Below are positions 16,558 through 35,460 of a stretch of 64,000 nucleotides of DNA, piece after piece. This DNA is from an uncultured Gammaproteobacteria bacterium. Lineage in GTDB: Bacteria > Patescibacteriota > Patescibacteriia > Magasanikbacterales > GWA2-37-8. Within the stretch, counting starts at the first letter, position 1; each line of letters opens with the position of its first letter. A program made the translations under genes and the position numbers. Under the pieces are notes generated by a model. That model ran no database searches, had not been told where the DNA came from, and saw only the letters and a program-made list of their open reading frames with translations. The stretch spans positions 88,835 to 152,834 of the forward strand of contig CAZINT010000004.1 in NCBI GenBank assembly GCA_964540825.1, given 5' to 3'.

Positions 16558-16571
16558 CATCTTCAAATCAT

Positions 16572-17366: not shown

Positions 17367-17367
17367 A

Positions 17368-19401: not shown

Positions 19402-19430
19402 TTGACACTACGAATTAAAACTGTCATTAT
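19402..19430 (+). promoter_or_regulatory. Sigma70-type promoter (TTGACA-17-CATTAT) for GC-rich lipoprotein gene
   Basis: TTGACA at 19402-19407, 17-nt spacer, CATTAT at 19425-19430; AAGGAGG RBS at 19464-19470. Confidence 0.5.
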
Positions 19431-19476
19431 CCCAACAGCCTCTCGGCTTTTTTGCCGAAAAATAAGGAGGAACACC

Positions 19477-19923: not shown

Positions 19924-20008
19924 CACCGCCCCCCCCCTTATTCCGCCATCCCTCGTCCGTTCCTATTCCAGGACGCGGGATGGCGTGTTATCTACTTTTT
20001 TCAAAAAA

Positions 20009-20040
20009 CAAAACATCTTTGCATTTGCAAAGATGTTTTT
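20009..20040. terminator. Bidirectional terminator between GC-rich gene and giant protein gene
   Basis: AAACATCTTTGCA-t-TGCAAAGATGTTT perfect 13-bp palindrome with flanking A/T runs. Confidence 0.6.
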
Positions 20041-20045: not shown

Positions 20046-23000
20046 TTATGGCGTGCTGGTTGGCGTCTCACTTTCCTCCGCCACGGACGGCGTTGAGCTT
20101 GCATCACTGGGCGGGGCTCCATCGAGCGCTGCGGTTGAAGAAGCCACCTCGACAACTGGTGTTTCCGCGGGAGAGGCGTCTAGCGTAGTCGTTGAAACGG
20201 TTTCAGGAACAGGATTACTTTTATTTTGATCTCGCCGTTTAGCGACCACAATCCAGTCAAACGTAGCAGTGCCAGCACTACCGTCAATTTCCCTTACCAC
20301 AAAACCTTGAGCTGATTTTTCAGCAACATAGACGCCCTTTGAGCCTGCTGAGGTAAGCGTCACCGTTACTTTAAGCGGCTGAGCCTGGTCAATAATATCC
20401 TGCGTTCCTTGATCGAAGACAATGCGTGCTTCGCCCGCGACAAGTGCGGACGAACTCGAGAAGACAAATTCTGATGTGGGCGACTGAACAGCAAACATAT
20501 CTTGCGTCCCGACCGATGTAGTAAGATGTGTTATAAAATGCCCCTCAGCATCAATAGACCATTTTTTATCTTTCGAAGTAATTGCCGCAACATTCAAAAG
20601 CACATGGCCTTGCAGGTTTAAATCACCGCCTTGATACATTAATTGTCCTTTTGGTGCTTCAACTTTCAAGTCATTACCACCATTTGCAAGATCAATGCCT
20701 TGAGCTGTTGCGAGCTGTTCTAGGTTAGTTTGGAGCGAGGTAATATTTTTGTTTTGTGAGTAGGCCCAACCGGTTCTAATGAGCGCGGGGATTTTTCCTT
20801 CGGTTCCACTGAAGGGGTCAAGCGCAATACCAATCACCCCAACCATCTTTTGGCTGTTATCAAGTGTGGGATCGTATTTCATCGCGTAGCCGGGTTTCGA
20901 CGATGCCACAAGAAGATCTCCGCGATTAATCAAACCATTTTCATTAACTACTTTAACCGGCACACGGCCAACCATAGCAAGCACAGCGGTAGTATCGGTT
21001 TTGCCCCTGCCTACCACGATGGTTGGGTTGGTTGAAATGACACCAGCAACTGCCACATCGTATGCCGCACCGCTGCGGCGATAGGTGTCCGGACTATTTG
21101 GGTCAACAATCATAACATCCCCAGCTTCAGCAATATCGTCAGCAGCTATATCTACACGTTCAGCTAAATCGCCGGGATTAGTCGAGGATCCAAAGGTTGC
21201 GCTCGCACCATAATAATTTCCCACGGTATTAACGTCACCATTAGCTGCTACGGAGAAAACCGGCGTGTCGTGCGCTCGGAGTGAAAACACAATTCGATCA
21301 GGCGTACTGGTTGGCGCAAAATTTGCGGCATTTAAAATAAACGCCCTAGCATTAGCAAAATCGCCCACATTTGAAGTTAAAAGACTACTTGTGGCAAACG
21401 AAATGGTATTGAGCGATGTCGAGAGGAGCGACAAGTTACCGTTGAGTGCAAAGTTATACGGCGTTGTTGAACTGCCGACAATAATATTCTTATTTTCCGT
21501 ATCAATGGTAAGTGTTTGGTTGAGGTTGCTCGTTGCCGCAGCGGACGAATCAATATTTACAAAGGTCGTAATCGTACCGCTGCCATTACCGGTAAAGTTT
21601 TCCATCGCAATACCAATAGTTGGCTGACCTGCCACAGCCTTAACCGCAACACCTGAAATTGACGAAGCGGAAAGTTTGTCCCCAACAGTAATTGGGCCGT
21701 TAAGGCTAGAAACAACTAAAGGCACGCGACCAGCCAAGGCCAGCGAGACCATTTTGGTTCCACTTGCAAAAACCGCGTCCTCCGGCCCCCACTCTGTCAG
21801 CAGCAGACCAGGTTTAGTCGAAACGATACCAATAGCGTGCGGGTGATCTTTAATATCAGCTTTTACTACTCGATTAGGATTATTTTTATCAAGCGCAACA
21901 ACATCACCTGGTTTTAAGGTTGGATCATCTGTCAGATATGATTCAGCTAAATCAAACCCGGAAAGATATGCTTGTTTGGCATAAATTTCTTGAGAATAGA
22001 TCTTATAAAAATACTGCCGTGAGTTACCGAGTGAAGTGCCTGAAAGAGCCGTTGTCGTCCTGCACCCGCCATTATCGAAATCATTGTCTGAGCACCCCTG
22101 CCACATCATCAGGTCTCCGGTGTCTGATTTGTAGTAAAAAGCAGTGAGGACACCGGCACCACTACGAACTAAAGACAGACCCTTGGTGTAATTAAAGGGG
22201 TCTGGCGACCCAAAAGGAAGTTGTGAATTTGTTCCTGAATAACAATTTACGCTGCCGCAGGAATAAATAAAGGGGTCGGTATCTGAATCAGTTATACGCT
22301 TTAAAAATGCAACTGCAGGTATTCCTCTACTGTCTATAGCAATACTTGGCCACGCCCCCTGGCTGCTCGTATGGTTTCCAACGGAAAGTGAGGTCTGTGA
22401 GATATTTGAACAAGCTGCGCTTTGACACGGACCAAAATACACGTTTGCATCTCCGTCATCATAGTAAGCTAAAAAAGGAACGCTTAACCCGCCAGGGCTT
22501 CCGGATTGGAAACCTCCATCAGCTTTGGCCATGCCAAGAGTAATATAACCACCTTCGTTTCCAACGTTATTGTCAATGGTATTGCCAAAAGAAAATGACG
22601 CACAGCGGATTGCTTGACAGTGAATCATCTTGATGGCGTTATTATTATCCTTAAACGCTATAAGTGGTGTGCCGTCTGAGGCGATAACCATTTTGATATA
22701 AGGATCAGTAGCGAGACTGGTTGACAGCGTAGAAGAAGCATCAAAGGCCGAACAATCCTCAGCAGTACAGTGTTTAAAAAGCAGATTATTTTCTGTTGAA
22801 TTTTGGTATGCTACTACCGGCATTCTATCCTGACCAACCGCTACTGCACTATATTTTCCATTATCCGAAAAAGTATCAAGCGTTCGGATACTAGCGGTAC
22901 TACAATCAACACTATAGCATTTCGCTAATTTAAGTTTTTGGTTAGTCGCATCATAATAAGTAAGAATCGGATACCCATCCGCACTGATGACCATAGAGGG

Positions 23001-26000
23001 ATTCTTACCGACATCCCCGGTCGAATCCAGGACTACTTCCGTATGAGAAGAACAGTTTTGAACACTACAGTGCATGACTATAAGATCAGCATTAGTAATG
23101 TCGTAATACGCAACAACCATAAGGTTATCACTGCCAACAACGGCAACTGGATAAGCGCCCACATCGTTTGTGGACACTAAAGTGCTTGAAGTACTTGTTG
23201 CGTTGCCTGCAATAGCGGTTGACGTAACGACACCGCTCAAAGGTACGATATTGCCCGCAATTTGGAGCGTACCGGAGCTAAAGATATTCCCGCTGCTATC
23301 AATATAAAGCCGACCAAGAGCATAAGCAGTGCTTGTATTAACCACAACCGCGGAAGTACGAGTAAATGTAGTTGTTGCCGAAAAAGTATTAAAACCAGTA
23401 AAATTTTGATCAGCTGTCAAAGAGGCTACATTAGCACCTCCGCCACAACCACTGCACGAGCCTACTGTAAGCGTTCCGATATAACCACTCGTTACATTTA
23501 AATTTTGAATGGTTGAACTTGCTGCTGTTGTGGTTGTAAATGTAGACGTTGCACTTACCCCGAGTGTTCCGGCAACATCTAATAAATTTACTGGCGCGCC
23601 AGTACCAATCCCCACATTGCCGCCAAAAATACCCAGCGTGTTTGCTTGGGATATAAAACCTGAAGCACCTCCGAGCCCAAAGCCAATTGAGTTAGTTCCG
23701 CCGCCGGTAATGGTCATATTTGTCCCAAGGGCAATTGAGTTGTTGCCTAGAGCGTGCGCTCCATTACCAAGCGCAATGGACGTGTCACCCCCAGCTTCAC
23801 TGCCAAAACCAGCTGCAAAAGCATTTTGATTCGTTACCGAGTTGCTACCGCCAAATGCAGCGCCATTATTTCCCGAAACGCTATTGCTTGCCCCCACCGC
23901 AATACCACGATCACTAACAATATTATTAAAACCAGCTGCAAAAGCATCACCCCCACTTGCAGTATTCCCCGTACCAAACACAGCCGAAGTATTTCCACTC
24001 GCTTTATTATTAAGGCCAAAAGCAACTGAATAATTTCCGATATTAGCATCGTCCCACTGTGTATTATTAACCGAACCAGCCCGAAACGCCGCTTTGTTTG
24101 GCACCCACATCAAACGAACACCTGCTCCATCATACGGTGTGACACCCGCCTCTCCAAGTGTGCCGATCGCCAAAATCGCCCCGTCTTTTATGGTAAATTT
24201 TGCCACCGGTGTTGAAGTGCCCACGCCAAGGCCACCGGAAAAGGAAGAGGTGGCGCTAAAAATATTTGAACCGGTAAATGTCTGATCAGCCGAGAGTGAT
24301 GCGCCTCCACCAGCCGAACAGCCTGTACACGTTCCAGTGACAACTAAATTGGTAATATTAGCCCGGGTGATCGAACTGCTGGCCATTGTAGTAGTGGTAA
24401 AAGTTGATGTACCCGTTACTGCAAGTGTACCGCCCACTGTCAAAAGTGAACTTGGAGTCAGTGTGCCGATACCAACATTACCGCCCATAATCGCTAACGT
24501 ATTGTTTTGGGAAAGCGTGCGAGAATTTGTATCAAGACCAATACCAACCGAATTATTTCCACTCACCGAAATTCTTGAGCCAAGCGCAATTGCCGAGGTT
24601 CCACCGGCGCTATTATTGGCACCGATCGCCGTAGAACCGGTGCCACCTGCAGAGGTATTGCCTGTACCGATCGCTGCTGCCGAGCTTGCGCCGCTCACCG
24701 TGTTGCTCAAACCAGCTGCAAAACCACCGCCGCCGCCATTAATAGTATTGCTCGTTCCAAAAGCAGCTGAGTAGGTTACTGTGACGTTATTACTGCCACC
24801 AAAAGCAACTGAGCCAGTTTGAGTAACCGTATTGCCGGTTCCACCTGCAAATGCCCTATCACCTGACACCTGATTATTTTCGCCAAAAGCAGCTGAATAA
24901 ACTCCGATATTTGCCGCATCCCACTGCGCCCCATTTATATAGCCCGCTCTAAAGGCGGCTTTGTTCGGAATCCACATAAGCCGCGTACCTGCACCATCAT
25001 ACGGAGTTGTACCTGCCCCGCCAAACGTTCCGACGGCCAAAACCGCTCCTTCACTCACCGTTAGCTTGGCTACTGGTGTTGACGTTCCCACACCAAGCCC
25101 AGCGCTAAACGAAGACGTCGCGCTAAAAACATTGGCACCAGTAAAGGTTTGGCTTGCCGATAACGACGCACCACTCGCTGCACAGCCAGTACACGTACCA
25201 TTTATAACTAAATTGGTAATATTGGCATTCGTAATGGTTGAACTGGCAATAGTCGTAGTTGTAAACGTGGTCGTAGCACTGAATACATTTAGGCCTGTAA
25301 AAGTCTGATTACCTGCTAAATACCCTAGCACGCCTGTGCCCCCAATGCTTGCTAAATTAATACCGCTTACCGTTCCATTAACTACCAAGTTGGAAACATT
25401 TGCATTGGCAATACTTGAACTAGCTATAGTAGTGGTGGCAAACGTCGATGTCGCACTAAAGGTATTGAGGCCAGTAAATGCTTGGGTATTGCCGAGATAT
25501 GCCAAAACACCCGTCCCAAAAATACTTCCGAGAGAAATGCCACTTACCGTACCGTTTACCGTTAAATTAGTGATGTTTGCAGTGCCGATTGTCGAACTGG
25601 CAACTGTTGTTGTGCTAAGTGTTGTAGTAGCGTTAAAAGTGTTTAAACCATTAAATATTCCTGAACCATTAACAACTAAACTATCCGCGGTCAGAGCATT
25701 AATACCGGTAATATTGTTACCTCCAAGCATTAAATTGCCGGCGAGCGTTCCGCCGGCGAGCGGTAAATAGTTACTTGCCGTGATAGAATCAGCCACCATA
25801 GCATCAGTAATACTGTTCGAGGGTAAAGAAACCGACCCATTAACCGTTAAGGCAACAATATTCGCACTATTTATAGTACTGCTAGCAATGGTAGAGGTTG
25901 TAAAAGTAGTCGTAGCATTAAAAACATTGGCCCCAGCAAAAGTTTGTGAATTAGCAAGGTAGGCCAAAACACCGGTACCACCAACACTCCCTAAATTTAG

Positions 26001-26828
26001 GCCGGTCAATGTACCTGTCAAATTTAAATTATTAATCGAAGCATTCACTATAGTAGCGGTGGTAATCGTTGAACTTGCCGCTGTTGTTGTTGTAAAGGTC
26101 GTAGTAGCACTAAACGTATTAGCGCCCGTAAAAGTTTGCGTACCGGCAAGCGACGCGTCACCTGTTCCTGACCCACAGCCCACACAACTACCGGTTACTA
26201 CCAGATTAGTAATATTTGCATTCGTGATCGAAGAACTTGCCGCAGTTGAAGTAGCCAGTGTCACAAAACCGGTACTGGTAACATTGGTGAACCGAAAACC
26301 ACCTTGACTGTCTGACAATGGAATATACACCGAACTTGACGCCGTATTTAAACCGTAGCCATTTAAAAAACCCGCATTAATAGCATAGGGGCTAGCCGTA
26401 ATTTGCTTGCGCGGCGTCAGGACTTCAGCACCTACCACAAGCTGCAGGTATATCCCTGAATTATTTCTAAAAATACCCGGATCAAGCGGGTTCGTACCCG
26501 CCCCGCCTAAATCCACACTAAATATACCGCTTGAGGGCGTAATACTGAGCGCAGCCGGAGTCGCTACTGTACCAGCCGCGGTGTATAACAAATTACCTGC
26601 AGTAGCAGCATCGTAAAGTAAAAACTGAATGTTAAGTGCTGTATCGATTGGTGTATTGGTGCTATCTAAAATTTTGCCTTGGTACGTTACTATTGAGGGT
26701 GGCGCCGCCGGGGCAGCACGTCCAATTTGAGAAAACAAAAAAGCTCCTACAAAAAACAAAAACAAGCCAATGAAGAAGAATTCCCGGCGCACGCGAACGG
26801 AGTGAGTCTCTCTATTTTTTACATTCAT
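20046..26828 (-). CDS. Giant repeat-rich surface protein (2260 aa) with N-terminal signal anchor, beta-helix/tail-fibre-like repeats
   Basis: Single uninterrupted ORF; N-terminal hydrophobic segment FFFIGLFLFFVGAFLF; ~40-aa Thr/Ser-rich repeats (TFTGANxFSATTTF...SSTIxNANITNL), YadA-head-like SxAxG runs, CxxC 'AYYD' repeats, duplicated C-terminal beta domain; paralogous to 26909-32371. Confidence 0.85.
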   Translation of the reverse strand: MNVKNRETHSVRVRREFFFIGLFLFFVGAFLFSQIGRAAPAAPPSIVTYQGKILDSTNTPIDTALNIQFLLYDAATAGNLLYTAAGTVATPAALSITPSSGIFSVDLGGAGTNPLDPGIFRNNSGIYLQLVVGAEVLTPRKQITASPYAINAGFLNGYGLNTASSSVYIPLSDSQGGFRFTNVTSTGFVTLATSTAASSSITNANITNLVVTGSCVGCGSGTGDASLAGTQTFTGANTFSATTTFTTTTAASSTITTATIVNASINNLNLTGTLTGLNLGSVGGTGVLAYLANSQTFAGANVFNATTTFTTSTIASSTINSANIVALTVNGSVSLPSNSITDAMVADSITASNYLPLAGGTLAGNLMLGGNNITGINALTADSLVVNGSGIFNGLNTFNATTTLSTTTVASSTIGTANITNLTVNGTVSGISLGSIFGTGVLAYLGNTQAFTGLNTFSATSTFATTTIASSSIANANVSNLVVNGTVSGINLASIGGTGVLGYLAGNQTFTGLNVFSATTTFTTTTIASSTITNANITNLVINGTCTGCAASGASLSASQTFTGANVFSATSSFSAGLGVGTSTPVAKLTVSEGAVLAVGTFGGAGTTPYDGAGTRLMWIPNKAAFRAGYINGAQWDAANIGVYSAAFGENNQVSGDRAFAGGTGNTVTQTGSVAFGGSNNVTVTYSAAFGTSNTINGGGGGFAAGLSNTVSGASSAAAIGTGNTSAGGTGSTAIGANNSAGGTSAIALGSRISVSGNNSVGIGLDTNSRTLSQNNTLAIMGGNVGIGTLTPSSLLTVGGTLAVTGTSTFTTTTMASSSITRANITNLVVTGTCTGCSAGGGASLSADQTFTGSNIFSATSSFSGGLGVGTSTPVAKFTIKDGAILAIGTLGEAGVTPYDGAGVRLMWVPNKAAFRAGSVNNTQWDDANIGNYSVAFGLNNKASGNTSAVFGTGNTASGGDAFAAGFNNIVSDRGIAVGASNSVSGNNGAAFGGSNSVTNQNAFAAGFGSEAGGDTSIALGNGAHALGNNSIALGTNMTITGGGTNSIGFGLGGASGFISQANTLGIFGGNVGIGTGAPVNLLDVAGTLGVSATSTFTTTTAASSTIQNLNVTSGYIGTLTVGSCSGCGGGANVASLTADQNFTGFNTFSATTTFTRTSAVVVNTSTAYALGRLYIDSSGNIFSSGTLQIAGNIVPLSGVVTSTAIAGNATSTSSTLVSTNDVGAYPVAVVGSDNLMVVAYYDITNADLIVMHCSVQNCSSHTEVVLDSTGDVGKNPSMVISADGYPILTYYDATNQKLKLAKCYSVDCSTASIRTLDTFSDNGKYSAVAVGQDRMPVVAYQNSTENNLLFKHCTAEDCSAFDASSTLSTSLATDPYIKMVIASDGTPLIAFKDNNNAIKMIHCQAIRCASFSFGNTIDNNVGNEGGYITLGMAKADGGFQSGSPGGLSVPFLAYYDDGDANVYFGPCQSAACSNISQTSLSVGNHTSSQGAWPSIAIDSRGIPAVAFLKRITDSDTDPFIYSCGSVNCYSGTNSQLPFGSPDPFNYTKGLSLVRSGAGVLTAFYYKSDTGDLMMWQGCSDNDFDNGGCRTTTALSGTSLGNSRQYFYKIYSQEIYAKQAYLSGFDLAESYLTDDPTLKPGDVVALDKNNPNRVVKADIKDHPHAIGIVSTKPGLLLTEWGPEDAVFASGTKMVSLALAGRVPLVVSSLNGPITVGDKLSASSISGVAVKAVAGQPTIGIAMENFTGNGSGTITTFVNIDSSAAATSNLNQTLTIDTENKNIIVGSSTTPYNFALNGNLSLLSTSLNTISFATSSLLTSNVGDFANARAFILNAANFAPTSTPDRIVFSLRAHDTPVFSVAANGDVNTVGNYYGASATFGSSTNPGDLAERVDIAADDIAEAGDVMIVDPNSPDTYRRSGAAYDVAVAGVISTNPTIVVGRGKTDTTAVLAMVGRVPVKVVNENGLINRGDLLVASSKPGYAMKYDPTLDNSQKMVGVIGIALDPFSGTEGKIPALIRTGWAYSQNKNITSLQTNLEQLATAQGIDLANGGNDLKVEAPKGQLMYQGGDLNLQGHVLLNVAAITSKDKKWSIDAEGHFITHLTTSVGTQDMFAVQSPTSEFVFSSSSALVAGEARIVFDQGTQDIIDQAQPLKVTVTLTSAGSKGVYVAEKSAQGFVVREIDGSAGTATFDWIVVAKRRDQNKSNPVPETVSTTTLDASPAETPVVEVASSTAALDGAPPSDASSTPSVAEESETPTSTP

Positions 26829-26908
26829 ACATAGCTCAAAAATCTGGCTAATTGATTTTTGCCAGTCGAAATGAGCTTAAGGGACTATACCACAAAATTA
26901 AAATTTAC

Positions 26909-29900
26909 TTAAGGGTTTGAAGCGGAAGCATCGGCGGGCGTGCTGCTGGCGGCAACATTTAAAACTGTACTCGTACTTTCAGGGGACGGCCCACTGGTAA
27001 TTTCCGGATTCTGGGTGCTAAAGTTAGCTGAATCCATACTTTCCACCGTACTCGTTACTGCGCCTGAATCTTCGTCGGCATTTTTAGAAAAATCACTCGG
27101 CGCTTCGGGCGCAGGCATTGCTTCTGACGGCGGAGTGATTAAGTTATCAACAGGCGTAGTTGGAACAAGCCAATAATCAAAGGCCACATCTTCTTCTGCG
27201 GGAGTATCCAGCATAATTGTAAATGCACCCGCCTCCTTGTTTGAAACCCACCAAAAATGCTTGGGGTTATTTACGAAGGTGACAAAAATCTTAGTACTGG
27301 TGGTAAATAGACTGTTTTCCACTCGAACACTTGATTCGCCATTATTAATTGTTGCTTGTCCGATAGTTGTTTTGCTTTGATCTGAATTTGGCGTAATAAC
27401 AAGTTGTTTGGTGACAACCTGGTCGGCAGTCAATTTTTTAACACGGGCATTTCCTTGTTCGTCAATTTCCCAAGCATTATTCACGCCCTGAACCCGACCC
27501 ACCGCCAGAAGCGCGCGGCCCCCGAGCGATAAATCTTTAGCCAAAGTAATACGGCCTTCTTCGCTTGTGACGCTCATTGTTTCTACGTTTGCACTAAGAT
27601 TTTCGCTATTAGTGCCGGCCAAACTATCCACCGTTGCCTGTAAATCTGTTAGGGTCTTGGTCTGGCTATAGACCCAGCCGGTGCGGATCAAGGCGGCGAT
27701 TTTGCCTTGTTCTGCAGTAAGCGGATCGAGCGCAATACCAATGATACCAACCACTTTCGAACTTACATCAAGCGTTGGATCATACTTCATGGCGTAACCT
27801 GGGCGCGACGAAGCCACCAGCAAGTCACCACGCTGAATTGAGCCGTTTTCGTTAACCACTTTAACCGGAACACGACCGACCATCGCCAAATTTGCCGTAT
27901 AATCAGTTTTGCCTTTACCTACCACGATTGTTGGATTACTGGAGATTACCCCGGCAACAGCGCTGTCATACGAAGTGCTGCTGCGGCGATAGGTATCCGG
28001 ACTGTTGGGGTCAACAATCATAACATCCCCTGCTTCCGCAGTATCGTCGCTGGCAATATCTACTCTTTCAGCCAAATCCCCCGGGTTCGTTGACGAACCA
28101 AAGGTAGCACTGGCCCCATAGTAATTGCCGACCGTGTTTACGTCGCCGTTTGCAGCAACCGAAAATACCGGCGTATTATTTGAACGCAGTGAGAAAAGAA
28201 TGCGATCAGAGGTGCTTGTCGGCGCAAAATTCGGCGCATTAAGAATAAAGGCCTTGGCATTTTCAAAATCCTGAACATTGGCCGCAAGAAGCGTGGTGGT
28301 CGAGAATGATACTTTTACGATTGACGGATCAACCACAGACAGGTCGCCGTTTAAGACAACTGAATACGGCTCAGTTGATGTGCCAAAGGTAATAGAGTGG
28401 TCTGTGCTATTCACTGTGAGTCCTTGGTAAATATTACCAGATGATCCTGAATCAAGGTTTACAAAAGCCGTGATAACCCCGGTCGTACTACTTACAAAAT
28501 TATCCATTGCAATGGCAACAGTTCTTTTGCCGGTCGCTCGAGCTGCTGTACCTGGCGTATCAGAAAGTTCCAAACGGTCACCTACATGAATGTCACCATG
28601 GCTTGAATTAACCTTTACCGGTACACGTCCGGACAGCGCTACCGGAACATGGAAGCCGCCCGAACTGCTGTTTTTCCATTCTGACAAAAGTAAACCCGGC
28701 TCAGTTGATACAATCCCGATTACTTCATCAGCCGCAACCGCTCGCCGTACATACCCCGGACGCTCCGGATCAAACGCCACAACGTCCCCCGCGCCGAGTG
28801 TTGGGTCGCTCGTAGGGTAATCTTCGGCCACGTCAAACGCTGCAACCTGAAATCTTTTCCCAAGAAACTGATTGGCAAAAACATTATTGAAGTAAGCTCC
28901 TGCACTGCCCAAGTTTTGTCCGCCGCTAACTACCTGCGTGCTTGTAGCAATACAATCAATATCAGCACACCTTAAAAAATTAAGTTTTGAATTCCCGTAA
29001 TATGCCACTATCGGCAAACCATCGGCTCCTATCGCCAAGCTGTTGCCGTAACCTGTAGCCGATGCGCCATCAAGCAGTGTTGATGTGGACCCGTAGTTGC
29101 AGTTCGCTTCACCGCACGTATAGGCAAAGAGCTTAAAAGTGGTAGTCGCCGACTGATATACCGTAATAACACGCCCGTCAACACCAACTTTAATTGAATT
29201 ATAAAAACCCGGAAAAGGTACGTTGGAGTCAACTTCTTGGCCGGCTGCGCTGCCGCTTGTACAGTCTGCAGCGTTACATTTAAAAATAAGAAAACGATTA
29301 AAAAAGCTTTCCCGATAACTTATAACCGGGAAGTTATCGTTTCCGATGGTCATGGAAATAAACCTTCCCGGATCGCCGGTAGTATCCAGTGTAGTAATAA
29401 AAATTTTGCTTGTTACAGTACATGACGGTTCACCACATCTAGCAAAAACAACTGAATCATTTGTTGCGTTATAATAAGCCATTACCGGTCTTCCGTCCGT
29501 TGGAATTGCCAGCGTTACCTGTTGCCCTACATTGGACCCTGAGGTATCAACTCCCGTATCTGTTCGAGTGTTGCATGACAGATCGAGACAATGAATAAAC
29601 CTAACATCCGCATTGGCATCGTCGTAATAAGCAATCGCCGGCAAACCATCCTTGCCGACAGCAAGCGATAAATATGAACCTCCGAAATTTACGAACGAAT
29701 TACCTATACTAACAATATCTCTTGAGGAACAATCTAAGTTTGTACAGTGATAGAAGTTAATTCTCTGCCGAAAAGAATCGTATATAGCAACCGCTGGAAA
29801 ACCGTCTGATCCAACCACGGCTGAGACATCATTACCGCCTGCATCACCACCAAAAAGCGTGTTCTGTGTCGCAATTGTAGCACAAGTAACGTCAGCACAT

Positions 29901-32371
29901 TTTACAAAATTAAAATCCCCACCATCCTTATAAAATACAAGCGGCAACTTATCAGTACCAACTACCAAAGAAATTATTTGCTCACCGGAAAAGCTCATGG
30001 AAGCATCAAGTGTGCGCGTAACAAAAGCTGCGGCCGTATAGGTTGGAATTGTAGTAGGCAAAAGATTACCCGCAAATTGAATCGAACCTGAGGATGAAAT
30101 ATTTCCGTTACTGTCAATATAAAATTTACCCTGGTTACTGCCAGCCGCCTGTCCTAAGACCAAACTACTGCTATCTAAAGTGGAGGTTGTAACACCGTTC
30201 GAAACCACCACTCCGCTTTGGACATTCAAATACCTCCACCTTGTCGACGAGGCACCCAAATCATACAGATTATTGATTGAAGGGACGATATCCCCTGCCA
30301 CTGTAGTTGTTGCCAAAGTTGTAGTCGCAGCAAATGTATTTAAGCCAATAAATGTTTGATCCGCACTTAGCGACGCTCCAGCACCCGCACACCCCGTACA
30401 GTTGGTTACCGTTAAGCTGGTAATTGTCGCCGTGTTGGCAAAAAGCGAGGTGATGTTGCCGCTTTCAATGGTCGAGCTTGCAGCGGTTGTAGTTACAAAC
30501 GTTGAGGTTGCGCTCACACCCAAGGTACCGCTGACCGACAATTTAAACCCCGGATCAACCGTACCGATTCCGACCGATCCACCAAGGATTCCGAGTACAT
30601 TGCTCCGACTAATAGTCCCGCCTGTTCCAAGCCCTATGCCAAACGACCCACTTCCATTTACCACCATGCTTGTACCAAATGCCAGACTATTATTCCCCGC
30701 GACTGCGTTCGACTGACCGGCTGCAAAGCTGTACGATCCGTTGACTGTATTTGATTCGCCAAATGCGCCTGACCAATTTCCTCCAACCGAGTTTCCTTGT
30801 CCATAACCAAATGAATACTGACCGTTAACGGTATTATTAAAGCCGCCAGCAAAAGAGCCTTGATCGCCCGCAGTGTTACCATTGCCAAACGCAGCAGCAA
30901 AATTACCGCTAACCGTATTGCTTCGCCCAAAAGCAAATGCGCCGTTTCCGCCGCTTACTGTATTACCAAAACCACCCGCAAAACCGTAGTCTGCACTGAC
31001 CTGGTTATTAAAACCAAAAGCAGCCGAATTAGTGCCGATATTTGCCGCGTCCCACTGCGCGGCATTCACCGATCCGGCTCTAAACGCACTTTTGTTCGGT
31101 ATCCACATGAGCCGCGTTCCCGCTCCTTCATACGGGGTGCCACCAACAGTTCCAACAGCTAAAATACTTCCATCTTGGATGGTAAGCGCAGCGAGTGGCG
31201 ACGAGGTGGCTATTCCTACGGCGGTTGCAAAAGTGCTGGTAGCAACAAATGAAGCCGGACCACTAACTGCTAAGGTGGAAGAAGCGTTCAAAGCACCTGT
31301 TACTGTAAAAGTGCTTGTTACAGTTGACGAAGCAGCGATAAAACCACCATTTAAAATGGACAAACCAGTGTTAGTAAGAGTTCCGCTCAGGCTGAGGGAA
31401 TTTAGCCCGGTGATATTGTTGCCGCCAAAAGCAACACTTCCGGTCAAAGTGCCGCCAGCAAGGGCCAAATAATTGCTTGCCGTAATCGTGTCTTGAACCA
31501 TTGCGTCTGTAATCGAATTGTTTGGCAAGGTAATCGTACCATTTACTCGTAGGTCGGTAATATTTGCCGTTCCCGCTGTTGAACTAGCGATTGTTGTGGT
31601 GGTAAACGTGGTTGTCGCCGAAAAAGCATTGAGCCCGGTAAAGCTTTGGTTGTTCGCCAAAAATGCTAGCACCCCAGTTCCTGAAATACTCCCAAGCGGC
31701 AGCGTGAGGCCGCTAATGGTCCCGCTCAGATTTAAATCTCTAATATTAGCAGTCGTAATTGTAGTGCTTGCTATAGTTGATGATGAAAAAGTACTGGTTC
31801 CCGAGACAAATATGTTAGTACTGCTGATAGTATTAAATTGAAAATTTCCTTGACTATCCGAAACTGGAATATACGCTGAGCTTGAAACAGTTTTTGCTCC
31901 AAATCCACCAAGATACAAACTGTTTAGGGCATACGGGGCAGCTGTAATTTGCTTACGCGGTGTCAAAACCTCTGCGCCAATAGTTATCTCTAAATACACA
32001 CTTCCGTTATCTCTAAAAATTTCTGTGCTCAGCGGATTTGTCCCCGTATCACCAAAATTAACACTAAATATACCGCTTGAGGGTGTAACACTTATTGCCG
32101 CCGGGGTACCGAGCGTTCCGCCAGCTGTATAGAGCGCATTGCCTGCGGTAGGCGCGTCGTACAAAACAAACGTCATGTTCGTCGCCGTGCTGATTGGCAC
32201 ATTGGCACTACTCAAGAGCTTTCCCTGGTAGGTTATCATTGACGGCGGATTGGCCGCACGAACTGTTGATAAAGCCCACAAAAACGAACTGGCAAAAAAT
32301 AAAAACAGGCCGACGAGAAAAAATATCCGGCTTTTTGAAGCTGAGTCTTTATATTTCTGCAAAACCTCCAT
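26909..32371 (-). CDS. Giant repeat-rich surface protein (1820 aa), tandem paralog of the 2260-aa protein
   Basis: N-terminus and C-terminal ~230 aa about 80-90% identical by eye to the downstream paralog; same repeat classes. Confidence 0.85.
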   Translation of the reverse strand: MEVLQKYKDSASKSRIFFLVGLFLFFASSFLWALSTVRAANPPSMITYQGKLLSSANVPISTATNMTFVLYDAPTAGNALYTAGGTLGTPAAISVTPSSGIFSVNFGDTGTNPLSTEIFRDNGSVYLEITIGAEVLTPRKQITAAPYALNSLYLGGFGAKTVSSSAYIPVSDSQGNFQFNTISSTNIFVSGTSTFSSSTIASTTITTANIRDLNLSGTISGLTLPLGSISGTGVLAFLANNQSFTGLNAFSATTTFTTTTIASSTAGTANITDLRVNGTITLPNNSITDAMVQDTITASNYLALAGGTLTGSVAFGGNNITGLNSLSLSGTLTNTGLSILNGGFIAASSTVTSTFTVTGALNASSTLAVSGPASFVATSTFATAVGIATSSPLAALTIQDGSILAVGTVGGTPYEGAGTRLMWIPNKSAFRAGSVNAAQWDAANIGTNSAAFGFNNQVSADYGFAGGFGNTVSGGNGAFAFGRSNTVSGNFAAAFGNGNTAGDQGSFAGGFNNTVNGQYSFGYGQGNSVGGNWSGAFGESNTVNGSYSFAAGQSNAVAGNNSLAFGTSMVVNGSGSFGIGLGTGGTISRSNVLGILGGSVGIGTVDPGFKLSVSGTLGVSATSTFVTTTAASSTIESGNITSLFANTATITSLTVTNCTGCAGAGASLSADQTFIGLNTFAATTTLATTTVAGDIVPSINNLYDLGASSTRWRYLNVQSGVVVSNGVTTSTLDSSSLVLGQAAGSNQGKFYIDSNGNISSSGSIQFAGNLLPTTIPTYTAAAFVTRTLDASMSFSGEQIISLVVGTDKLPLVFYKDGGDFNFVKCADVTCATIATQNTLFGGDAGGNDVSAVVGSDGFPAVAIYDSFRQRINFYHCTNLDCSSRDIVSIGNSFVNFGGSYLSLAVGKDGLPAIAYYDDANADVRFIHCLDLSCNTRTDTGVDTSGSNVGQQVTLAIPTDGRPVMAYYNATNDSVVFARCGEPSCTVTSKIFITTLDTTGDPGRFISMTIGNDNFPVISYRESFFNRFLIFKCNAADCTSGSAAGQEVDSNVPFPGFYNSIKVGVDGRVITVYQSATTTFKLFAYTCGEANCNYGSTSTLLDGASATGYGNSLAIGADGLPIVAYYGNSKLNFLRCADIDCIATSTQVVSGGQNLGSAGAYFNNVFANQFLGKRFQVAAFDVAEDYPTSDPTLGAGDVVAFDPERPGYVRRAVAADEVIGIVSTEPGLLLSEWKNSSSGGFHVPVALSGRVPVKVNSSHGDIHVGDRLELSDTPGTAARATGKRTVAIAMDNFVSSTTGVITAFVNLDSGSSGNIYQGLTVNSTDHSITFGTSTEPYSVVLNGDLSVVDPSIVKVSFSTTTLLAANVQDFENAKAFILNAPNFAPTSTSDRILFSLRSNNTPVFSVAANGDVNTVGNYYGASATFGSSTNPGDLAERVDIASDDTAEAGDVMIVDPNSPDTYRRSSTSYDSAVAGVISSNPTIVVGKGKTDYTANLAMVGRVPVKVVNENGSIQRGDLLVASSRPGYAMKYDPTLDVSSKVVGIIGIALDPLTAEQGKIAALIRTGWVYSQTKTLTDLQATVDSLAGTNSENLSANVETMSVTSEEGRITLAKDLSLGGRALLAVGRVQGVNNAWEIDEQGNARVKKLTADQVVTKQLVITPNSDQSKTTIGQATINNGESSVRVENSLFTTSTKIFVTFVNNPKHFWWVSNKEAGAFTIMLDTPAEEDVAFDYWLVPTTPVDNLITPPSEAMPAPEAPSDFSKNADEDSGAVTSTVESMDSANFSTQNPEITSGPSPESTSTVLNVAASSTPADASASNP

Positions 32372-32547
32372 AGGCTTGTTTCAAAATAGGCTGTTGTTCA
32401 CCTATTTTTCCTTACTATAAGTATACCACTAATTACAGTAAAATTAAATAAAAATAACTACCGCCTATCCACGCCTCCTGCTTTAAAAAATAACGACCGG
32501 TTATTTAAGCCGGTCGTTATTTTATAAAGTATACGTAGTGCTGCTTT

Positions 32548-35460
32548 TTAACGAGGTTTTTCCTCAGTTGGCGTACTGGCAGCATTTTCGGAATTATTTT
32601 TTTTAACGAGCCCCACATTAGATCCGATTGTTGCCACTTCTGTACCGCTCAGATCAATCACGTTAGTCTTAGCCGGCTGGTATTCCTTGTGGTCGTACGT
32701 GACATAATACCGGTTATCTCCGGCCAAGAAATAATATCGACCTCGGGAGTCAGTTATCTGTGTTGAAACGAGTTTGTTGAACTGTGAACTAAATAAACGT
32801 GCTACAGCCCGAGCAACCGGTGTTCGAGACTTTGCGTCATAGACAATACCCCAGCTCTTTGGTTTTGGCGGCAAAGCCAGGCGCCTAAAGACAAAAAACA
32901 TTACCACGTGCCCCGCCAAAAGCGCTGCAACATACCACTTAGGAGTTATGTAGAGGGAAACTGCTGTAACGGCCAATCCAAACCACGACAGTGCAACTTG
33001 AATTTTTTTACCCATCTTTTCCCAAATCAAACGACGCGGAGTCTTGTTTTCGCCAGTCGGATCAAGCGGAATATTGGCGGTAATAATTGGGTCCTTTTCT
33101 TTAATGACCACTGGCTCACCGTGGTAAATATCTGCCTTTTTACCATCGGTGGCAAAACCGCGCAACAAAACAGATGGAAAAACCATTTTTTCCTTTGAAA
33201 CCTCCAGGCGGTACTTGCCTGGATTAACGGTAAAATAATAGCGGCCGTTCTTGTCGGTGACACGCGACTGAATAACTTTTCCCGTTTCAAAATCAACGAG
33301 ACGTATAATAGCAAGATCTACCGGCAACTTGCTGAGTGAATTATATACCTGGCCCCATCCTTGGCGCTTTTTGCGACCAAGCAATAAAACTGGCTGTAAA
33401 AATAACAGCCGAAGAAGCGGCAGTAAATCAACCCACGAAATTAACGGGGCCGCACTTACCGCGATAATACCGGCGGCAGCAGGAGCAACGACCGTGCCAG
33501 CTGCCTGCTGCACCTGAGGGTTATCGGCTAAATTCTGAAGCACCTTAGTAACAGCTTGCGATTTGGCTGCTAAATTTTGCGCGACATTCTTAATGTTTTC
33601 ACCAAGCGGCTTTTTTAAATCAATAACTTCAGCCAGTGTCGGCGGTATCGTAATAAGCGTTACTGATGGAGCAAAAATGTTATTCGTCACTACTTCAAGC
33701 GGCACGCTATAGTCGTATCGCCCCGCTGCCGAAATTTTGGCATAGTATCGGCCGTTTGGCACAACCCAACCAAACATACCTTGCTCGTTGGCTGTTTGAG
33801 GATTTACTTGGGCATAACGATCAAGAGCAACTGCATCGCCGCTTTCAGACAAGAGTGTAATTTTAGCCCCAGGAACAGGGGCTTTTTTATCGCCCAGGAC
33901 TTGGCCGAAGGGACGGCTATCAAGCGTAAACGCAACGGTATCCACTTGTCCAGCACCATAATCAATCTTCACATAGGCCTGATGTACACCAACATTTGGA
34001 AAAATAAAATCCGTATAATACTTTTTATCTCCTTCATTATATGAAAGAAAGTGTTCATTTGTGCCATCAACAACCACAGCGATTCCGATCGGTTTTTGAC
34101 CCAAAACTGCCGAATTTATAGCGGTTGTAAAAGTAAACCCGGTTATATTCGTGACAGCTCCGCTGAGCAGGGTGAGCTGCACAGTCCGATTGGCTGCCGA
34201 AAATATTAGTGCGTCAGCAGTAATTTTCAAAAAACTTGGTACTGTCGAGGTAGGTACTACCACCGTCGGCTCCTCCGGAGTTGGCAGCGTAGGTGTCGAG
34301 GTTGGCGTCGGCACTTGGCAGCTGCTCGCCAGTGAGCAGACGGTATCAGCGCAGTCTATCAGACCATCAGCATTGTCATCGATTCCATTACTACACATTT
34401 CCTGGCCGACCAGTGCTGGGAGCTCTGCGCTTCCTGAGACGCCTGAGCTAAAATTATTGGATGTATCAAAAGAAAAAAGTGTATAAAAATATTGCACGTT
34501 TGTCGCGAGCCCCGTATCAACAAACAGTTGACCTTTGCCGCTATAAACTTCAAGTCCGTCGGTAATCGATCGGGGTGCGCTGCCAGTTTTACGAATAATT
34601 TTTACCCCCTCAAAATCTGGGGCGACCATCTCGGTTGGATTTTCCCAGCTGAGCACAATTTTTCCATCTGTCGCTATAACTTTAAGATTACTTACGTCAG
34701 GCGGCGGCACTACTTTTTTAAGAGTGGTAAACGTCCCATCGCCACTATTAGTACTGTTACCATTTGCATCGGTCGCAATAACTCTAAAGTGATAGATGGT
34801 GTTCGCTGTCAGACCAACTAAAACAATTTTATGCTTAACAACGGAGCTAGCGTCTGTAGCTAAACTGCCATAGCCAGCCGTTATACCATATTGTACTTGA
34901 CTATCAGAGGCTTCATCTGTATCCCATGTTATTGTGGCAGTAGTTTCACCAGGAACAACCGCTACATTAGTTAGTGCGGGGGGTGTTGTATCGGTTTCTG
35001 ATTTTGTTTTGAAAGAACCGGCCGACTCGGTAGTGTGGTTAGCGGTATCGGTTACACTGATTTTATAAAAATAGAGGGTGTCTGTTGCAAGCCCTGACAA
35101 AGAAACTTGGTATGCGCCCGTAATGCTTCCAGTCATTCCATATGCAGCACTTGTTCCATAGACAAAACTACTCATGCTTATTCCTTTGTCGTCGCTGGCT
35201 GACCAGGTAACACGAGCACTCGTAAAATCAACTGTTGCGTTTACACCCGCGATCACGGGCGGGTTATCCATCTCAGGCGGCGGCGTGTCGGTAGTCCCAC
35301 CACCACCGCCACCTCCGCCGCCGCCGTTATTAGTTTGATTTGGAACCGTCGCTCCAACCGTAATAGCGCCAGACTGAGTTTCAGCAAAAACAACCTGAAC
35401 CATAGCTTGTGAGGCAAGCAGTGCGCAGACCAAAATAAAAACCAAAATTTTACGCCACAT
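32548..35460 (-). CDS. Large surface/membrane protein with fibronectin-III-like repeats, Cys-rich motif, CnaB/carboxypeptidase-regulatory-like domains and C-terminal TM helices
   Basis: Signal peptide, poly-Gly linker, three ~90-aa FN3-like repeats (VTWSASDD..., ITWDTDEASD..., LSWENPTE...), CxxGxDDNxDGxxDCxDxxC motif, GRYYF/GKYRLEV beta-sandwich motifs, two hydrophobic helices near C-terminus. Confidence 0.65.
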   Translation of the reverse strand: MWRKILVFILVCALLASQAMVQVVFAETQSGAITVGATVPNQTNNGGGGGGGGGGTTDTPPPEMDNPPVIAGVNATVDFTSARVTWSASDDKGISMSSFVYGTSAAYGMTGSITGAYQVSLSGLATDTLYFYKISVTDTANHTTESAGSFKTKSETDTTPPALTNVAVVPGETTATITWDTDEASDSQVQYGITAGYGSLATDASSVVKHKIVLVGLTANTIYHFRVIATDANGNSTNSGDGTFTTLKKVVPPPDVSNLKVIATDGKIVLSWENPTEMVAPDFEGVKIIRKTGSAPRSITDGLEVYSGKGQLFVDTGLATNVQYFYTLFSFDTSNNFSSGVSGSAELPALVGQEMCSNGIDDNADGLIDCADTVCSLASSCQVPTPTSTPTLPTPEEPTVVVPTSTVPSFLKITADALIFSAANRTVQLTLLSGAVTNITGFTFTTAINSAVLGQKPIGIAVVVDGTNEHFLSYNEGDKKYYTDFIFPNVGVHQAYVKIDYGAGQVDTVAFTLDSRPFGQVLGDKKAPVPGAKITLLSESGDAVALDRYAQVNPQTANEQGMFGWVVPNGRYYAKISAAGRYDYSVPLEVVTNNIFAPSVTLITIPPTLAEVIDLKKPLGENIKNVAQNLAAKSQAVTKVLQNLADNPQVQQAAGTVVAPAAAGIIAVSAAPLISWVDLLPLLRLLFLQPVLLLGRKKRQGWGQVYNSLSKLPVDLAIIRLVDFETGKVIQSRVTDKNGRYYFTVNPGKYRLEVSKEKMVFPSVLLRGFATDGKKADIYHGEPVVIKEKDPIITANIPLDPTGENKTPRRLIWEKMGKKIQVALSWFGLAVTAVSLYITPKWYVAALLAGHVVMFFVFRRLALPPKPKSWGIVYDAKSRTPVARAVARLFSSQFNKLVSTQITDSRGRYYFLAGDNRYYVTYDHKEYQPAKTNVIDLSGTEVATIGSNVGLVKKNNSENAASTPTEEKPR

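Follow-up and report, generated by a model that had tools for sequence, protein, structure and literature searches.

Two ancient tandem paralogues of Patescibacteria probably encode Sec-exported modular fibres on a phage tail fibre or tailspike plan

The C-terminal domain of phi29 gp12 is needed for folding and trimer assembly and is afterwards cleaved off (PMC3357383, PMC4690869). Each chain of K1F carries a β-propeller, and the mature trimeric fibre depends on an intramolecular chaperone for its assembly (PMC4690869, PMC3357383). The body of the gp12 chaperone is β-stranded, whereas that of the S74 type is elongated (PMC4690869). Endosialidase-type tailspikes and T5 pb1 combine a conserved N-terminal attachment region, a variable receptor-binding domain, and a conserved C-terminal chaperone, a logic shared by the proteins described here. 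Little has been learned so far about how ultrasmall Patescibacteria recognise their partners and stay attached to them; in Southlakia epibionticum, the one species studied genetically across its genome, several predicted surface adhesins proved essential by Tn-seq and are still uncharacterised (PMC10633639, PMC11665869).

The window (the whole analysed stretch of 64,000 nucleotides) contains two adjacent genes on the minus strand, the strand of all features located below. Gene A, the downstream or A-type paralogue (20046..26828), encodes a protein of 2260 residues, and gene B, the upstream or B-type paralogue (26909..32371), one of 1820 residues. Both ORFs are uninterrupted and lie where an earlier note on this DNA had placed them. 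We consider it probable that A and B are ancient paralogues encoding Sec-exported modular fibres of Patescibacteria, built like phage tail fibres and tailspikes.

Very large genes full of repeats are known to be prone to misassembly, and the earlier note had warned that the duplication could be an assembly artefact or the ORFs really interrupted. We found no support for either. The proteins share 40% identity over 1450 residues in the overall alignment and thus differ by 60%. The independent Logan assembly of SRR11567520 contains a 2260-residue ORF identical to gene A, preceded by a gene with an 1820-residue product that runs off the end of the locus, and the tandem pair also occurs in two further MAGs (L003 and L004). 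As far as assemblies can show, an artefact is already refuted, and we give it next to no probability.

The nearest relatives of A and B come from MAGs of Paceibacteria, Magasanikbacteria, and other Patescibacteria; these relatives, the leader, and the modules agree with the earlier description of large adhesin-like modular surface proteins, here secreted ones of a Patescibacteria/CPR organism. About 90 cluster representatives, mostly 800–5000 residues long, match the d2 domain (see below) at E ≤ 1e-30, and most of them consist of a leader and ITYQGKLL module, a variable middle, and d2 followed by ∼250 residues. The giant relatives surfaced only in exhaustive searching, in which the gp12-type domain matched 14,748 clusters at 50% identity; all matches listed by word-indexed homologue searches were shorter than ∼760 residues, and the N-terminal module retrieved only two short proteins by that route. 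Whole-protein scans of Pfam, NCBIfam, and PHROGs gave almost nothing besides YadA_head and two PHROGs, and fragment scans with the N-terminal module, the Thr/Ser stalk, the linker, and the propellers gave no significant family. For annotation, a module map can take the place of "hypothetical protein". Its predicted order is leader, N-terminal module, Thr/Ser stalk with YadA-like β-rolls, propeller, domains d1 and d2, and a region of helix, sandwich, and tail.

Residues 1–42 of A (26703..26828) read as a Sec-type leader with a basic n-region, ∼20 hydrophobic residues, and the sequence GRA/AP. Members of the fibre family carry an A-x-A motif immediately on the N-terminal side of the PPxIxYQGKLL module. 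The A leader is probably a cleaved signal peptide, with APAAPPSIVTYQGK as the predicted cleavage product; an uncleaved anchor is also conceivable from the sequence. The following module (ITYQGKIL...LYDA.TAGN; residues 43–175, 26304..26702) was delimited by A/B and orthologue identity. It is 66% identical between A and B and 74–89% identical to the orthologues, and the closest family members mostly have it, so that leader and ITYQGK(I/L)L module are both present as first noticed. The module has no Pfam or PDB match, and a PDB sequence search with the N-terminal 523 residues returned nothing. We propose a cell-proximal docking role for it on the basis of its conservation. No LPXTG motif or C-terminal transmembrane segment was seen in the fibre proteins, which could therefore be released rather than cell-bound.

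Repeat analysis places the Thr/Ser-rich stalk of A at residues 176–565 (25134..26303), with an LPLAGGTLAG motif at residue 357 and CxGC at residues 215 and 546. Of the ∼40-residue Thr/Ser-rich repeats described before, the composition holds and the period does not, as it amounts to 177 nt (59 residues) where the repeats are tandem. Two YadA-head-like β-roll blocks follow at residues 566–1090 (23559..25133), assigned by Pfam, PDB matches, and repeat families D3, D6, and D10. They represent an internal duplication of 867 nt with 71% nucleotide identity; the A orthologue of L004 has a single block, as does B (residues 376–610, 30542..31246, assigned by PDB matches). The YadA-head/tail-fibre-like runs of the earlier note are real: Pfam YadA_head (PF05658) scores 27 bits in A (cutoff 25, E 5.7e-6), and the PDB sequence matches of A and B are the heads of CbpF, UspA1, YadA, and BpaC, the β-roll of B matching CbpF at 1.2e-5 together with heads of trimeric autotransporter adhesins. 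A neck at residues 1091–1215 of A (23184..23558), recognised in A/B and orthologue alignments, joins stalk and propeller.

The SxAFG/NxxSG repeats of the left-handed β-roll are thus common to A, B, and the heads of YadA, UspA1, BpaC, and Fusobacterium CbpF, and the role proposed for A and B is that of a fibrous adhesin, as in trimeric autotransporters. In contrast to these, neither protein has a YadA_anchor β-barrel in Pfam or NCBIfam scans, and both end in a β-sandwich and a low-complexity tail. The bacterium itself presumably has no outer membrane to hold such an anchor. The proteins would be exported via the Sec leader at their N-terminus, and the gp12-like domains, in place of a C-terminal membrane anchor, would bring about trimerisation.

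The neck of A leads into a seven-bladed β-propeller with seven C-x4-C repeats (residues 1216–1600, 22029..23183), and B has the same arrangement at residues 791–1150 (28922..30001). Structure prediction shows the seven-bladed fold, and the repeats follow the consensus TTVDxxGxVGxxTSIAIGxDGLPVISYxDxTNxxLKVAxCxNxxC. About eight CxxC repeats of ∼45 residues had been reported; the cysteine repeats are confirmed, whereas number and spacing are revised to seven C-x4-C per protein with a period of ∼50 residues. Seven blades with C-x4-C in each also set these propellers apart from those of endosialidase-type tailspikes. A propeller fragment scan gave no Pfam family. The nearest structural neighbours include CylK, Vgb lyase, and polysaccharide lyases, and also lectins. 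PLL (Photorhabdus), BP39L (Burkholderia), and CylK share the seven-bladed fold but not the repeat consensus, their binding-site residues could not be transferred, and the sequence identity of the propeller to these and other structural neighbours is 5–12%.

Since both enzymes and lectins are among the neighbours, the propeller could serve either binding or catalysis. We propose that it is a ligand-binding head. The same fibres might instead be tailspike-like depolymerases whose propeller or C-terminal sandwich cuts or modifies a polysaccharide of the host surface or the cell wall. Endosialidase and other depolymerase tailspikes offer the analogy, the C-terminal sandwich of B gives sub-threshold Pfam hints of K1-lyase_C and Phage_depo_C, and gp12 itself reportedly digests teichoic acid (work ascribed to Xiang et al., 2009). 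However, identity to all those enzymes is just 5–12%, Pfam and NCBIfam gave no catalytic family, active-site residues could not be mapped, and the lectins PLL and BP39L and integrin propellers score as well as the enzymes. We therefore regard depolymerase activity as unlikely, at roughly a chance in five. Binding also accords with the rate pattern: identity is 26–44% in the propeller, 83–95% in d2, and 64–94% in the stalk, which is typical of receptor-binding fibres.

Two related domains, d1 and d2, follow the propeller. In A, d1 (residues 1620–1760, 21549..21971) starts with FDLAE at residue 1626 and was assigned by PHROG, Pfam, and motif (phrog_22593; Pfam XM1_gp53_minor_capsid, E 9e-4). A linker or short stalk (residues 1761–1880, 21189..21548), seen in A/B, orthologue, and family alignments, leads to d2 (residues 1881–2025, 20754..21188), the most conserved module, with GDLAE at residue 1887. 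In B, d1 (residues 1174–1310, 28442..28852) has FDVAE at residue 1180 and matches phrog_19602 (tail fiber), and d2 (residues 1426–1570, 27662..28096), placed by A/B alignment and motif, has GDLAE at residue 1432. The duplicated C-terminal β-domain of the earlier note is thereby recovered as a duplication, with a length of ∼135–145 residues in place of ∼100; the copies are ∼30% identical.

The best PDB sequence matches of the family profile are structures of phi29 gp12 (6qz9 and 3gqh), at a weak E of 0.3–0.5. A fold search with d2 returned the fold of the C-terminal D4 domain of gp12 and not the S74 type, and the Pfam scan of A and B gave no S74 domain (PF13884). A and B thereby differ in chaperone type from endosialidases and pb1, which have Peptidase_S74. 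The D-x-A-E motif aligns with Asp-692-Phe-Ala-Glu-695 of gp12, and the chain in 3gqh starts at that aspartate; the motif in d1 and d2 is thereby aligned with the point in gp12 D4 (PDB codes 3GQH, 3GQK, and 3SUC) at which the cleaved fragment begins. Among 32 sequences, Ala and Glu are invariant and Asp is kept in at least 90%, and of 191 domain instances, 185 have the motif where it is expected. Pfam PF11962 (Peptidase_G2) matched neither A and B nor isolated d1 or d2, even at E ≤ 10, whereas the intermediate homologues P0019, P0023, and P0024 pass it at 26–27 bits (cutoff 25) in an overlapping region. Given the weak profile match and the missing PF11962 match, homology to gp12 rests mainly on fold, motif, and intermediates. 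In the d1 segment the AF2 model has a pLDDT below 50, probably owing to a poor alignment, and we therefore take the d1 fold from its homology to d2. With these points combined, d1 and d2 are probably homologous to the C-terminal autochaperone of gp12 (MEROPS/Pfam Peptidase_G2), a judgement we make jointly with that on the fibres as a whole.

A BFVD fold search found the same fold in many uncultured Caudovirales proteins, including ones named "Preneck appendage protein", Mtd-N-containing and collagen-repeat proteins, and a "Tail protein". A tblastn search of d2 against GenBank phages gave just weak partial matches, to PA5oct-like jumbo phages. The BFVD search was far more informative on phage relatives than tblastn. 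The gp12-type domain is therefore very widespread while being poorly covered by domain libraries, and A and B present it in an internal tandem form in cellular proteins.

Like gp12 D4, d2 is conserved beyond all other parts of a variable fibre, and both gp12 D4 and d1/d2 come after a β-structured passenger that is trimeric in gp12 and would be so in A and B. The cleavage site of gp12 we take to lie between Ser-691 and Asp-692, with Asp-692 and Glu-695 as the catalytic residues listed in MEROPS. Xiang et al. are said to have described these residues in 2009, together with an ATP-dependent release of the chaperone. In contrast to gp12, A and B are cellular Sec-exported proteins with two tandem copies, neither of which is C-terminal, followed by helix, β-sandwich, and low-complexity tail; the PF11962 model does not detect these copies, and their cleavage and any ATP-dependent release are putative. 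More distant homologues mostly end with the gp12-type domain. Since d1 and d2 are both internal, with 230–290 residues after d2, they fit poorly to a simple model of a C-terminal chaperone that is cut off. By analogy with the C-terminal domain of the P22 tailspike, an uncleaved trimerisation domain, they could be permanent trimerisation domains.

Downstream of d2, A has a helix and C-terminal β-sandwich (residues 2026–2195, 20244..20753; AF2 secondary structure, kept across the family) and a low-complexity tail rich in Ser, Thr, Pro, and Glu (residues 2196–2260, 20049..20243), 27–33% identical to the orthologues. The C-terminal ∼230 residues of the two proteins had been described as about 85–90% identical. 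In fact, the conserved block is internal (residues ∼1811–2030 of A and ∼1356–1575 of B), and the ∼230–245 residues after it are just 17–35% identical between A and B.

At the DNA level the block was said to be ∼80% identical; we measured 74% over 605 nt (A 20761–21362, B 27669–28270), with a third-codon identity of 0.40 and dN of 0.12–0.14. Synonymous sites are saturated, so that no NG86 dS could be obtained. Saturated dS together with low dN indicates that the 85–95% protein identity of the block reflects purifying selection on an assembly domain. Moreover, A and B each have one-to-one orthologues in the two other tandem loci (A: L003_dn 77%, L004_dn 58%; B: L003_up 66%, L004_up 55%), against 40% between A and B. 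The comparison shows an ancient conserved paralogue pair, and the recent duplication or gene conversion proposed earlier does not hold.

These data also bear on the suggestion that A and B exchange segments by recombination or gene conversion as a system of phase or antigenic variation. Tandem paralogues on the same strand with a strongly conserved internal block, a tyrosine recombinase gene ∼1 kb from the 3′ end of gene A, and a module copy number that differs between orthologues would all suit such a system. However, A and B share no exact match longer than 23 nt, their best DNA block has 74% identity, each gene keeps its own orthologue in two other genomes, and the integrase is part of an island of low GC that was inserted. 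There are no simple sequence repeats inside either fibre gene, no tandem DNA repeats were found, and a scan for inverted repeats gave no convincing ones that would connect A with B, border promoters or segments of the genes, or tie the adjacent integrase to the fibre genes. The scanned part of the window's ORFs contains no reverse transcriptase of a diversity-generating retroelement (DGR). Because all these signatures are negative, we reject phase variation, to which we assign only a very small residual probability.

The neighbours of the pair in the window are housekeeping, pilus, and membrane-protein genes. Immediately upstream lies a gene for a 970-residue protein (32548..35460; Pfam) with a signal peptide, fn3, CarboxypepD_reg, and multiple transmembrane segments. 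In L001, L002, L004, L006, and L007 the fibre gene is likewise immediately preceded by a homologue of this gene, so that the protein is a conserved neighbour and a candidate membrane platform or partner. The order of 970-residue membrane protein, fibre, YchF, ABC-F, and pilM/C/B and its position are kept in L004, L006, and L007, the distance from fibre pair to YchF being ∼2.7 kb in L004 versus ∼9.8 kb in the window.

Nearly all modules have phage counterparts, and less than 10 kb from the 3′ end of gene A there are two tyrosine integrases and a tRNA-Ala, as might be expected if the fibre genes belonged to a prophage, a tailocin, or another phage-derived particle. Yet both proteins have Sec-type leaders, genes for capsid, portal, terminase, tail tube, or baseplate were not detected among the scanned ORFs, and the GC content of the fibre genes equals that of the surrounding chromosome, whereas that of the integrase island is lower. 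A prophage origin, rejected on the conserved chromosomal synteny, is in our estimation very improbable.

For cellular fibres, the modules suggest the following mechanism. The N-terminal module would attach the fibre to the cell surface, for which the co-conserved 970-residue membrane protein is a possible mount. After export, the gp12-like domains would nucleate and register three chains, and stalk and head would fold as a trimer; the analogies with gp12, trimeric decoration proteins, and the YadA-like β-roll lead us to infer this trimeric state. The gp12-like domains may then cut themselves off at D-x-A-E, exposing the disulfide-containing propeller, a putative variable ligand-binding head, as the distal tip. 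With docking and assembly modules shared and propellers and C-terminal sandwiches very different, the paralogues would bind different ligands. Gene structure, the age of the duplication, folds, motif conservation, and rate pattern are shown here; trimerisation, cleavage, a place on the cell surface, and adhesion are proposals, and host attachment is a reasonable one. Surface proteins are predicted to mediate attachment in cultivated Saccharibacteria too, and the type IV pilus genes that belong to this biology occur near the fibre pair in the window. Saccharibacteria are, however, a different class of Patescibacteria, and their adhesins have genetic evidence of essentiality, whereas A and B are known from sequence and models. 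The locus brings forward a concrete candidate family that is widespread and legible in its design, with docking and assembly ends that are conserved, a propeller head that evolves fast, and a sharply defined D-x-A-E motif open to mutation.

A wider and more tentative idea, which we hold possible but would not favour, is that Patescibacteria adopted the building set of phage tail fibres for their own surface. Such a set would comprise fixed N-terminal docking, a middle or head that can be exchanged freely (propellers, YadA-like rolls, LVIVD-like repeats), and a fixed C-terminal assembly cassette, in which one or two gp12-type domains bearing a D-x-A-E self-cleavage site precede helix and β-sandwich. 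The fibres would mount on the conserved fn3/CarboxypepD_reg platform of 970 residues and set partner-cell specificity as receptor-binding proteins set phage host range. If so, a single cell would gain two specificities from the A/B pair, and the tandem internal gp12-like domains would imply that maturation takes two steps or retains the cap, a course not described for phage fibres.

B and A are separated by 80 nt, which contain TGGTATAGT, an extended −10-like element (26884..26892), and no terminator-like site. A promoter-like site upstream of B (32414..32442) contains TGGTATACT; both elements are consensus matches. An inverted-repeat scan places a terminator with a 13-bp hairpin and a T-run after gene A (20010..20039) and the terminator of the upstream 970-residue gene, a 20-bp hairpin, at 32481..32529. 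The latter hairpin sets the 970-residue gene apart from the fibre pair.

The two giant fibre genes lie in tandem on the minus strand, separated by 80 nt, and each is an uninterrupted ORF: the upstream gene B (26909–32371) encodes 1820 amino acids, and the downstream gene A (20046–26828) encodes 2260. An earlier note on this DNA had placed them at exactly these coordinates, and the feature that it described is real, well defined, and for the most part correctly drawn. The proteins share 40% identity across 1450 residues (BLASTP). Both begin, as proposed, with a hydrophobic leader followed by a conserved ITYQGK(I/L)L module. The leaders end in GRA/AP in A and VRA/AN in B (the slash marks the presumed cut point), and an A-x-A motif directly precedes PPxIxYQGKLL in many family members, a position that favors a cleaved signal peptide as judged from sequence.

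The repeat classes proposed for the body of the proteins are present, with two corrections. The Thr/Ser-rich repeats have a period of 177 nt (59 residues) where they are tandem, and the cysteine-containing repeats number seven C-x4-C units per protein with a period of ∼50 residues, not about eight of 45. The YadA-head-like SxAFG/NxVSG runs were recognized by Pfam YadA_head in A (27 bits; cutoff, 25) and matched the heads of CbpF, UspA1, YadA, and BpaC in a PDB sequence search with both A and B. Gene A owes its extra length mainly to a YadA-like block that was duplicated within the gene (867 nt) and whose two copies are now 71% identical at the nucleotide level; the A orthologue of the related locus L004 has one copy. 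C-x-G-C pairs occur at module junctions (residues 215, 546, 834, and 1125 of A and residue 658 of B) and recur just ahead of the GASLSA(D/S)QTFTG junction, which precedes most stalk/β-roll modules; speculatively, they could form inter-chain disulfide rings that fix the register of a trimer.

Close to the C terminus, each protein carries the expected duplicated β-domain, with the motifs GDV(V/M)..D...VAGV(I/V)ST.P...A(L/M).GRVPVKV..ENG.I..GDLL..S..PG.AMK. The first copy (d1) spans residues ∼1620–1760 of A (starting with FDLAE) and ∼1174–1310 of B (FDVAE), and the second (d2) spans residues ∼1881–2025 of A and ∼1426–1570 of B (both GDLAE). The best PDB sequence match of a 32-sequence domain profile is gp12, the appendage protein of phage phi29, at a weak E value of 0.3–0.5. 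The alignment puts the D-x-A-E motif onto D692-F-A-E695 of gp12, the autocleavage site, and the crystallized cleaved gp12 fragment (3GQH) starts at exactly this aspartate. Within the 32 sequences, alanine and glutamate of the motif are invariant, and aspartate is at least 90% conserved; of 191 domain instances from the best 142 representatives, 185 have D-x-[AS]-E where it is expected. Three intermediate homologues (P0019, P0023, and P0024) pass the gathering score of PF11962 (Peptidase_G2, IMC autoproteolytic cleavage domain), overlapping the first half of the domain, and the window's own copies give no PF11962 match. A Foldseek search against predicted viral structures found the fold to be common to many uncultured Caudovirales proteins, including some named “Preneck appendage protein,” Mtd N-terminal-domain proteins, collagen-repeat proteins, and a “Tail protein.”

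In gp12, Asp-692 and Glu-695 are presumably catalytic, and release of the C-terminal domain needs ATP. This domain has a β-stranded body and acts as an intramolecular chaperone, without which the chains aggregate, and it is removed by cleavage after folding (PMC3357383, PMC4690869). By analogy, the gp12-type domains of A and B would register and chaperone a fibre trimer, and self-cleavage at D-x-A-E may then expose the variable C-x4-C repeat region as the ligand-binding tip at the far end. Structurally, A and B differ from gp12 mainly in that the domains occur in tandem inside the chain and are followed by a conserved C-terminal extension. A real alternative to cleavage is that one or both copies stay in place as permanent, uncleaved trimerization domains, like that of the P22 tailspike (PMC3357383). 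In the predicted model, the region following d2 consists of a helix and a β-sandwich with a sub-threshold likeness to phage depolymerase C-terminal domains, and both proteins finish with a low-complexity tail rich in Ser, Thr, Pro, and Glu. Among the matches listed for more distant homologues, the domain is mostly found at the extreme C terminus of unrelated architectures, such as a papain-like protease with a lectin or glycine-rich domains.

The seven C-x4-C repeats model as a seven-bladed β-propeller, with pLDDT >90 for most of the region. Its nearest solved neighbors are virginiamycin B lyase, polysaccharide lyases, YncE, and integrin α propellers, all at 5–12% sequence identity, and the repeat family is widespread, unannotated, and sometimes fused to collagen repeats. 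A module-by-module comparison identified the propeller as the fastest-evolving folded part (identity of 0.39 for A and L004, 0.39 for B and L004, 0.44 for B and L003, and 0.26 for A and B). In these comparisons, d2 has changed least (0.83–0.95), with the YadA-like blocks at 0.64–0.94 and the N-terminal module at 0.66–0.89; the C-terminal sandwich is 0.24 identical between paralogues and 0.54–0.90 between orthologues. Such conserved ends, putatively for attachment and assembly, around a variable recognition part are the signature of phage receptor-binding proteins. The best-supported reading is that A and B form two Sec-exported surface fibres, probably trimeric and built like phage fibres, which would act in adhesion rather than as enzymes and would present two specificities on common docking and assembly modules. 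The analysis shows the gene structure, how old and how conserved the duplication is, the d2 and propeller folds, conservation of the motif, the pattern of rates, and the synteny; trimerization, cleavage, anchoring at the surface, and adhesion are inferred.

Large adhesin-like proteins are expected in CPR bacteria, and the abstract of the 2009 gp12 paper reportedly suggested already that bacterial adhesins mature by a gp12-like route, so that the finding will come as no great surprise to specialists. The proteins are best read as phage-type, chaperone-terminated fibres put to use on the cell surface of Patescibacteria, and the family offers a tangible, broadly distributed candidate for the recognition of partner cells that lends itself to experiments.

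The high identity proposed for the C-terminal ∼230 residues of A and B applies to an internal block instead (residues ∼1811–2030 of A and ∼1356–1575 of B; 85–95% amino acid identity), whereas the ∼230–245 residues that follow are only 17–35% identical. Its DNA is similar as well, at 74% over 605 nt and not the suggested ∼80%. An assembly artefact is contradicted by an independent Logan assembly of SRR11567520, which has an identical 2260-residue ORF preceded by a gene with an 1820-residue product that runs off the end of the locus; both proteins are also found on one 185.7-kb contig in a public collection. In a scan for relatives with one genome per species, the tandem pair was recovered from the close relatives L003 and L004, where the downstream genes are orthologues of A (77 and 58% identity, respectively) and the upstream genes orthologues of B (66 and 55%). 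All comparisons of A-type with B-type proteins give ∼40%, and orthology is one to one, so the duplication is older than the split of the three lineages. Farther off, L006 (a Magasanikbacteria MAG) and L007 each carry just one fibre gene, in the corresponding place on the chromosome. In the conserved block, the codons agree at only ∼40–50% of the identical residues; third codon positions have an identity of 0.40, dS has reached saturation, and dN is 0.12–0.14. The high protein identity therefore reflects purifying selection and not gene conversion, and neither the conversion nor the recent duplication suggested earlier is supported.

The suggestion of a phase-variable system likewise finds no support, since searches for repeats, SSRs, inverted repeats, and reverse transcriptases yielded no switching device. 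The longest exact match between A and B is 23 nt, and direct repeats are all 60–80% identical. There are no SSRs inside either gene, no tandem DNA repeats (TRF), no credible inverted repeats joining A and B or either gene to the neighboring integrase, and no reverse transcriptase among the subset of window ORFs scanned. A C9 homopolymer (G9 on the minus strand) at 19929–19937, outside both fibre genes and just past the hairpin terminating gene A (20010–20039), lies at the end of two overlapping unannotated ORFs (19402–19923, plus strand; 19483–19926, minus strand). The interval between YchF and gene A holds an extra ∼9 kb with a tRNA-Ala, two integrases, and low-GC genes, and YchF lies only ∼2.7 kb from the fibre pair in L004; the integrase therefore belongs to the cargo of the island rather than serving the fibre locus as a recombinase. 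This probable integrated island (10350–19083) comprises the tRNA-Ala (10350–10424), a tyrosine integrase (10516–11448), the low-GC genes (12–18 kb; GC 0.34–0.42), among them those for an SNase-like nuclease (14230–15183) and an HTH/sigma-like protein (17501–17965), and the second integrase (18055–19083); it adjoins the fibre locus.

The window is chromosomal, and its genes include pilB, pilC, pilM, and those for an ABC-F protein, YchF, PolA, and a membrane pyrophosphatase. On the minus strand, a set of envelope genes reading in the same direction (32548–39329) comes before the fibre pair: a multi-TM protein with a weak, sub-threshold Wzy_C (O-antigen-ligase-like) match and C-terminal TPRs (37041–39329), two small proteins (a 209-residue ORF and a 309-residue Ig-like protein), and a 970-residue protein with signal peptide, fn3, CarboxypepD_reg, and multi-TM regions (32548–35460). 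A strong hairpin (32481–32529) separates the last gene from B, and a TGGTATA(G/C)T element precedes each fibre gene. In L001, L002, L004, L006, and L007, the gene just upstream of the fibre gene encodes a homologue of the 970-residue protein, and the fibres would be anchored at the surface, possibly through this protein. In the window, the 970-residue protein has a run of 11 glycines behind its signal peptide and, at residues 353–381, a sub-threshold match to the NCBIfam “acidic double-disulfide repeat” (30.1 bits; cutoff, 41). The Wzy_C/TPR protein beside Ser/Thr-rich fibres raises the idea of putative O-glycosylation; TPR-protein homologues come after the fibre genes in L009 and L012. The other flank in L004, L006, and L007 carries YchF, a methyltransferase, and pilus genes, and among these three an ABC-F homologue is found in L004 only. 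Type IV pilus genes (PilB-like ATPase, PilC/GspF-like platform, and PilM) lie at 671–4673 of the window, and the pilus-to-fibre distance is within ∼15 kb there and ∼4–10 kb in L004, L006, and L007. Elsewhere, a GC-rich patch at 41830–43460 (GC 0.574 versus ∼0.45 in other parts) gave no Rfam family and, for its plus-strand ORF, no Pfam match; it holds long overlapping ORFs (41830–42990, plus strand; 41848–42915, minus strand).

With a threshold of E ≤ 1e-3, an exhaustive HMMER search with d2 returned 14,748 clusters (defined at 50% identity), of which 92 reached E ≤ 1e-30. Most of the best 95 matches are proteins of 800–5000 residues that share one frame: a leader and ITYQGKLL module, a variable middle (as many as 13 YadA-like matches, propellers in only a few cases, or repeats of other kinds), and a C-terminal part of linker, d2, and then ∼250 residues, with one or two gp12-like domains. 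In L001 (6355–11828), gene calling breaks the fibre region into a row of short genes, and L002 (2343–11728) has almost no plus-strand gene calls ahead of a 575-residue fragment; these patterns suggest that the giant gene is frameshifted in the assemblies or has become a pseudogene. L003, L004, and L007 are deposited as “uncultured Gammaproteobacteria bacterium,” but the genes they carry, like every other relative, indicate Patescibacteria, and the title looks like a placeholder or misassignment.
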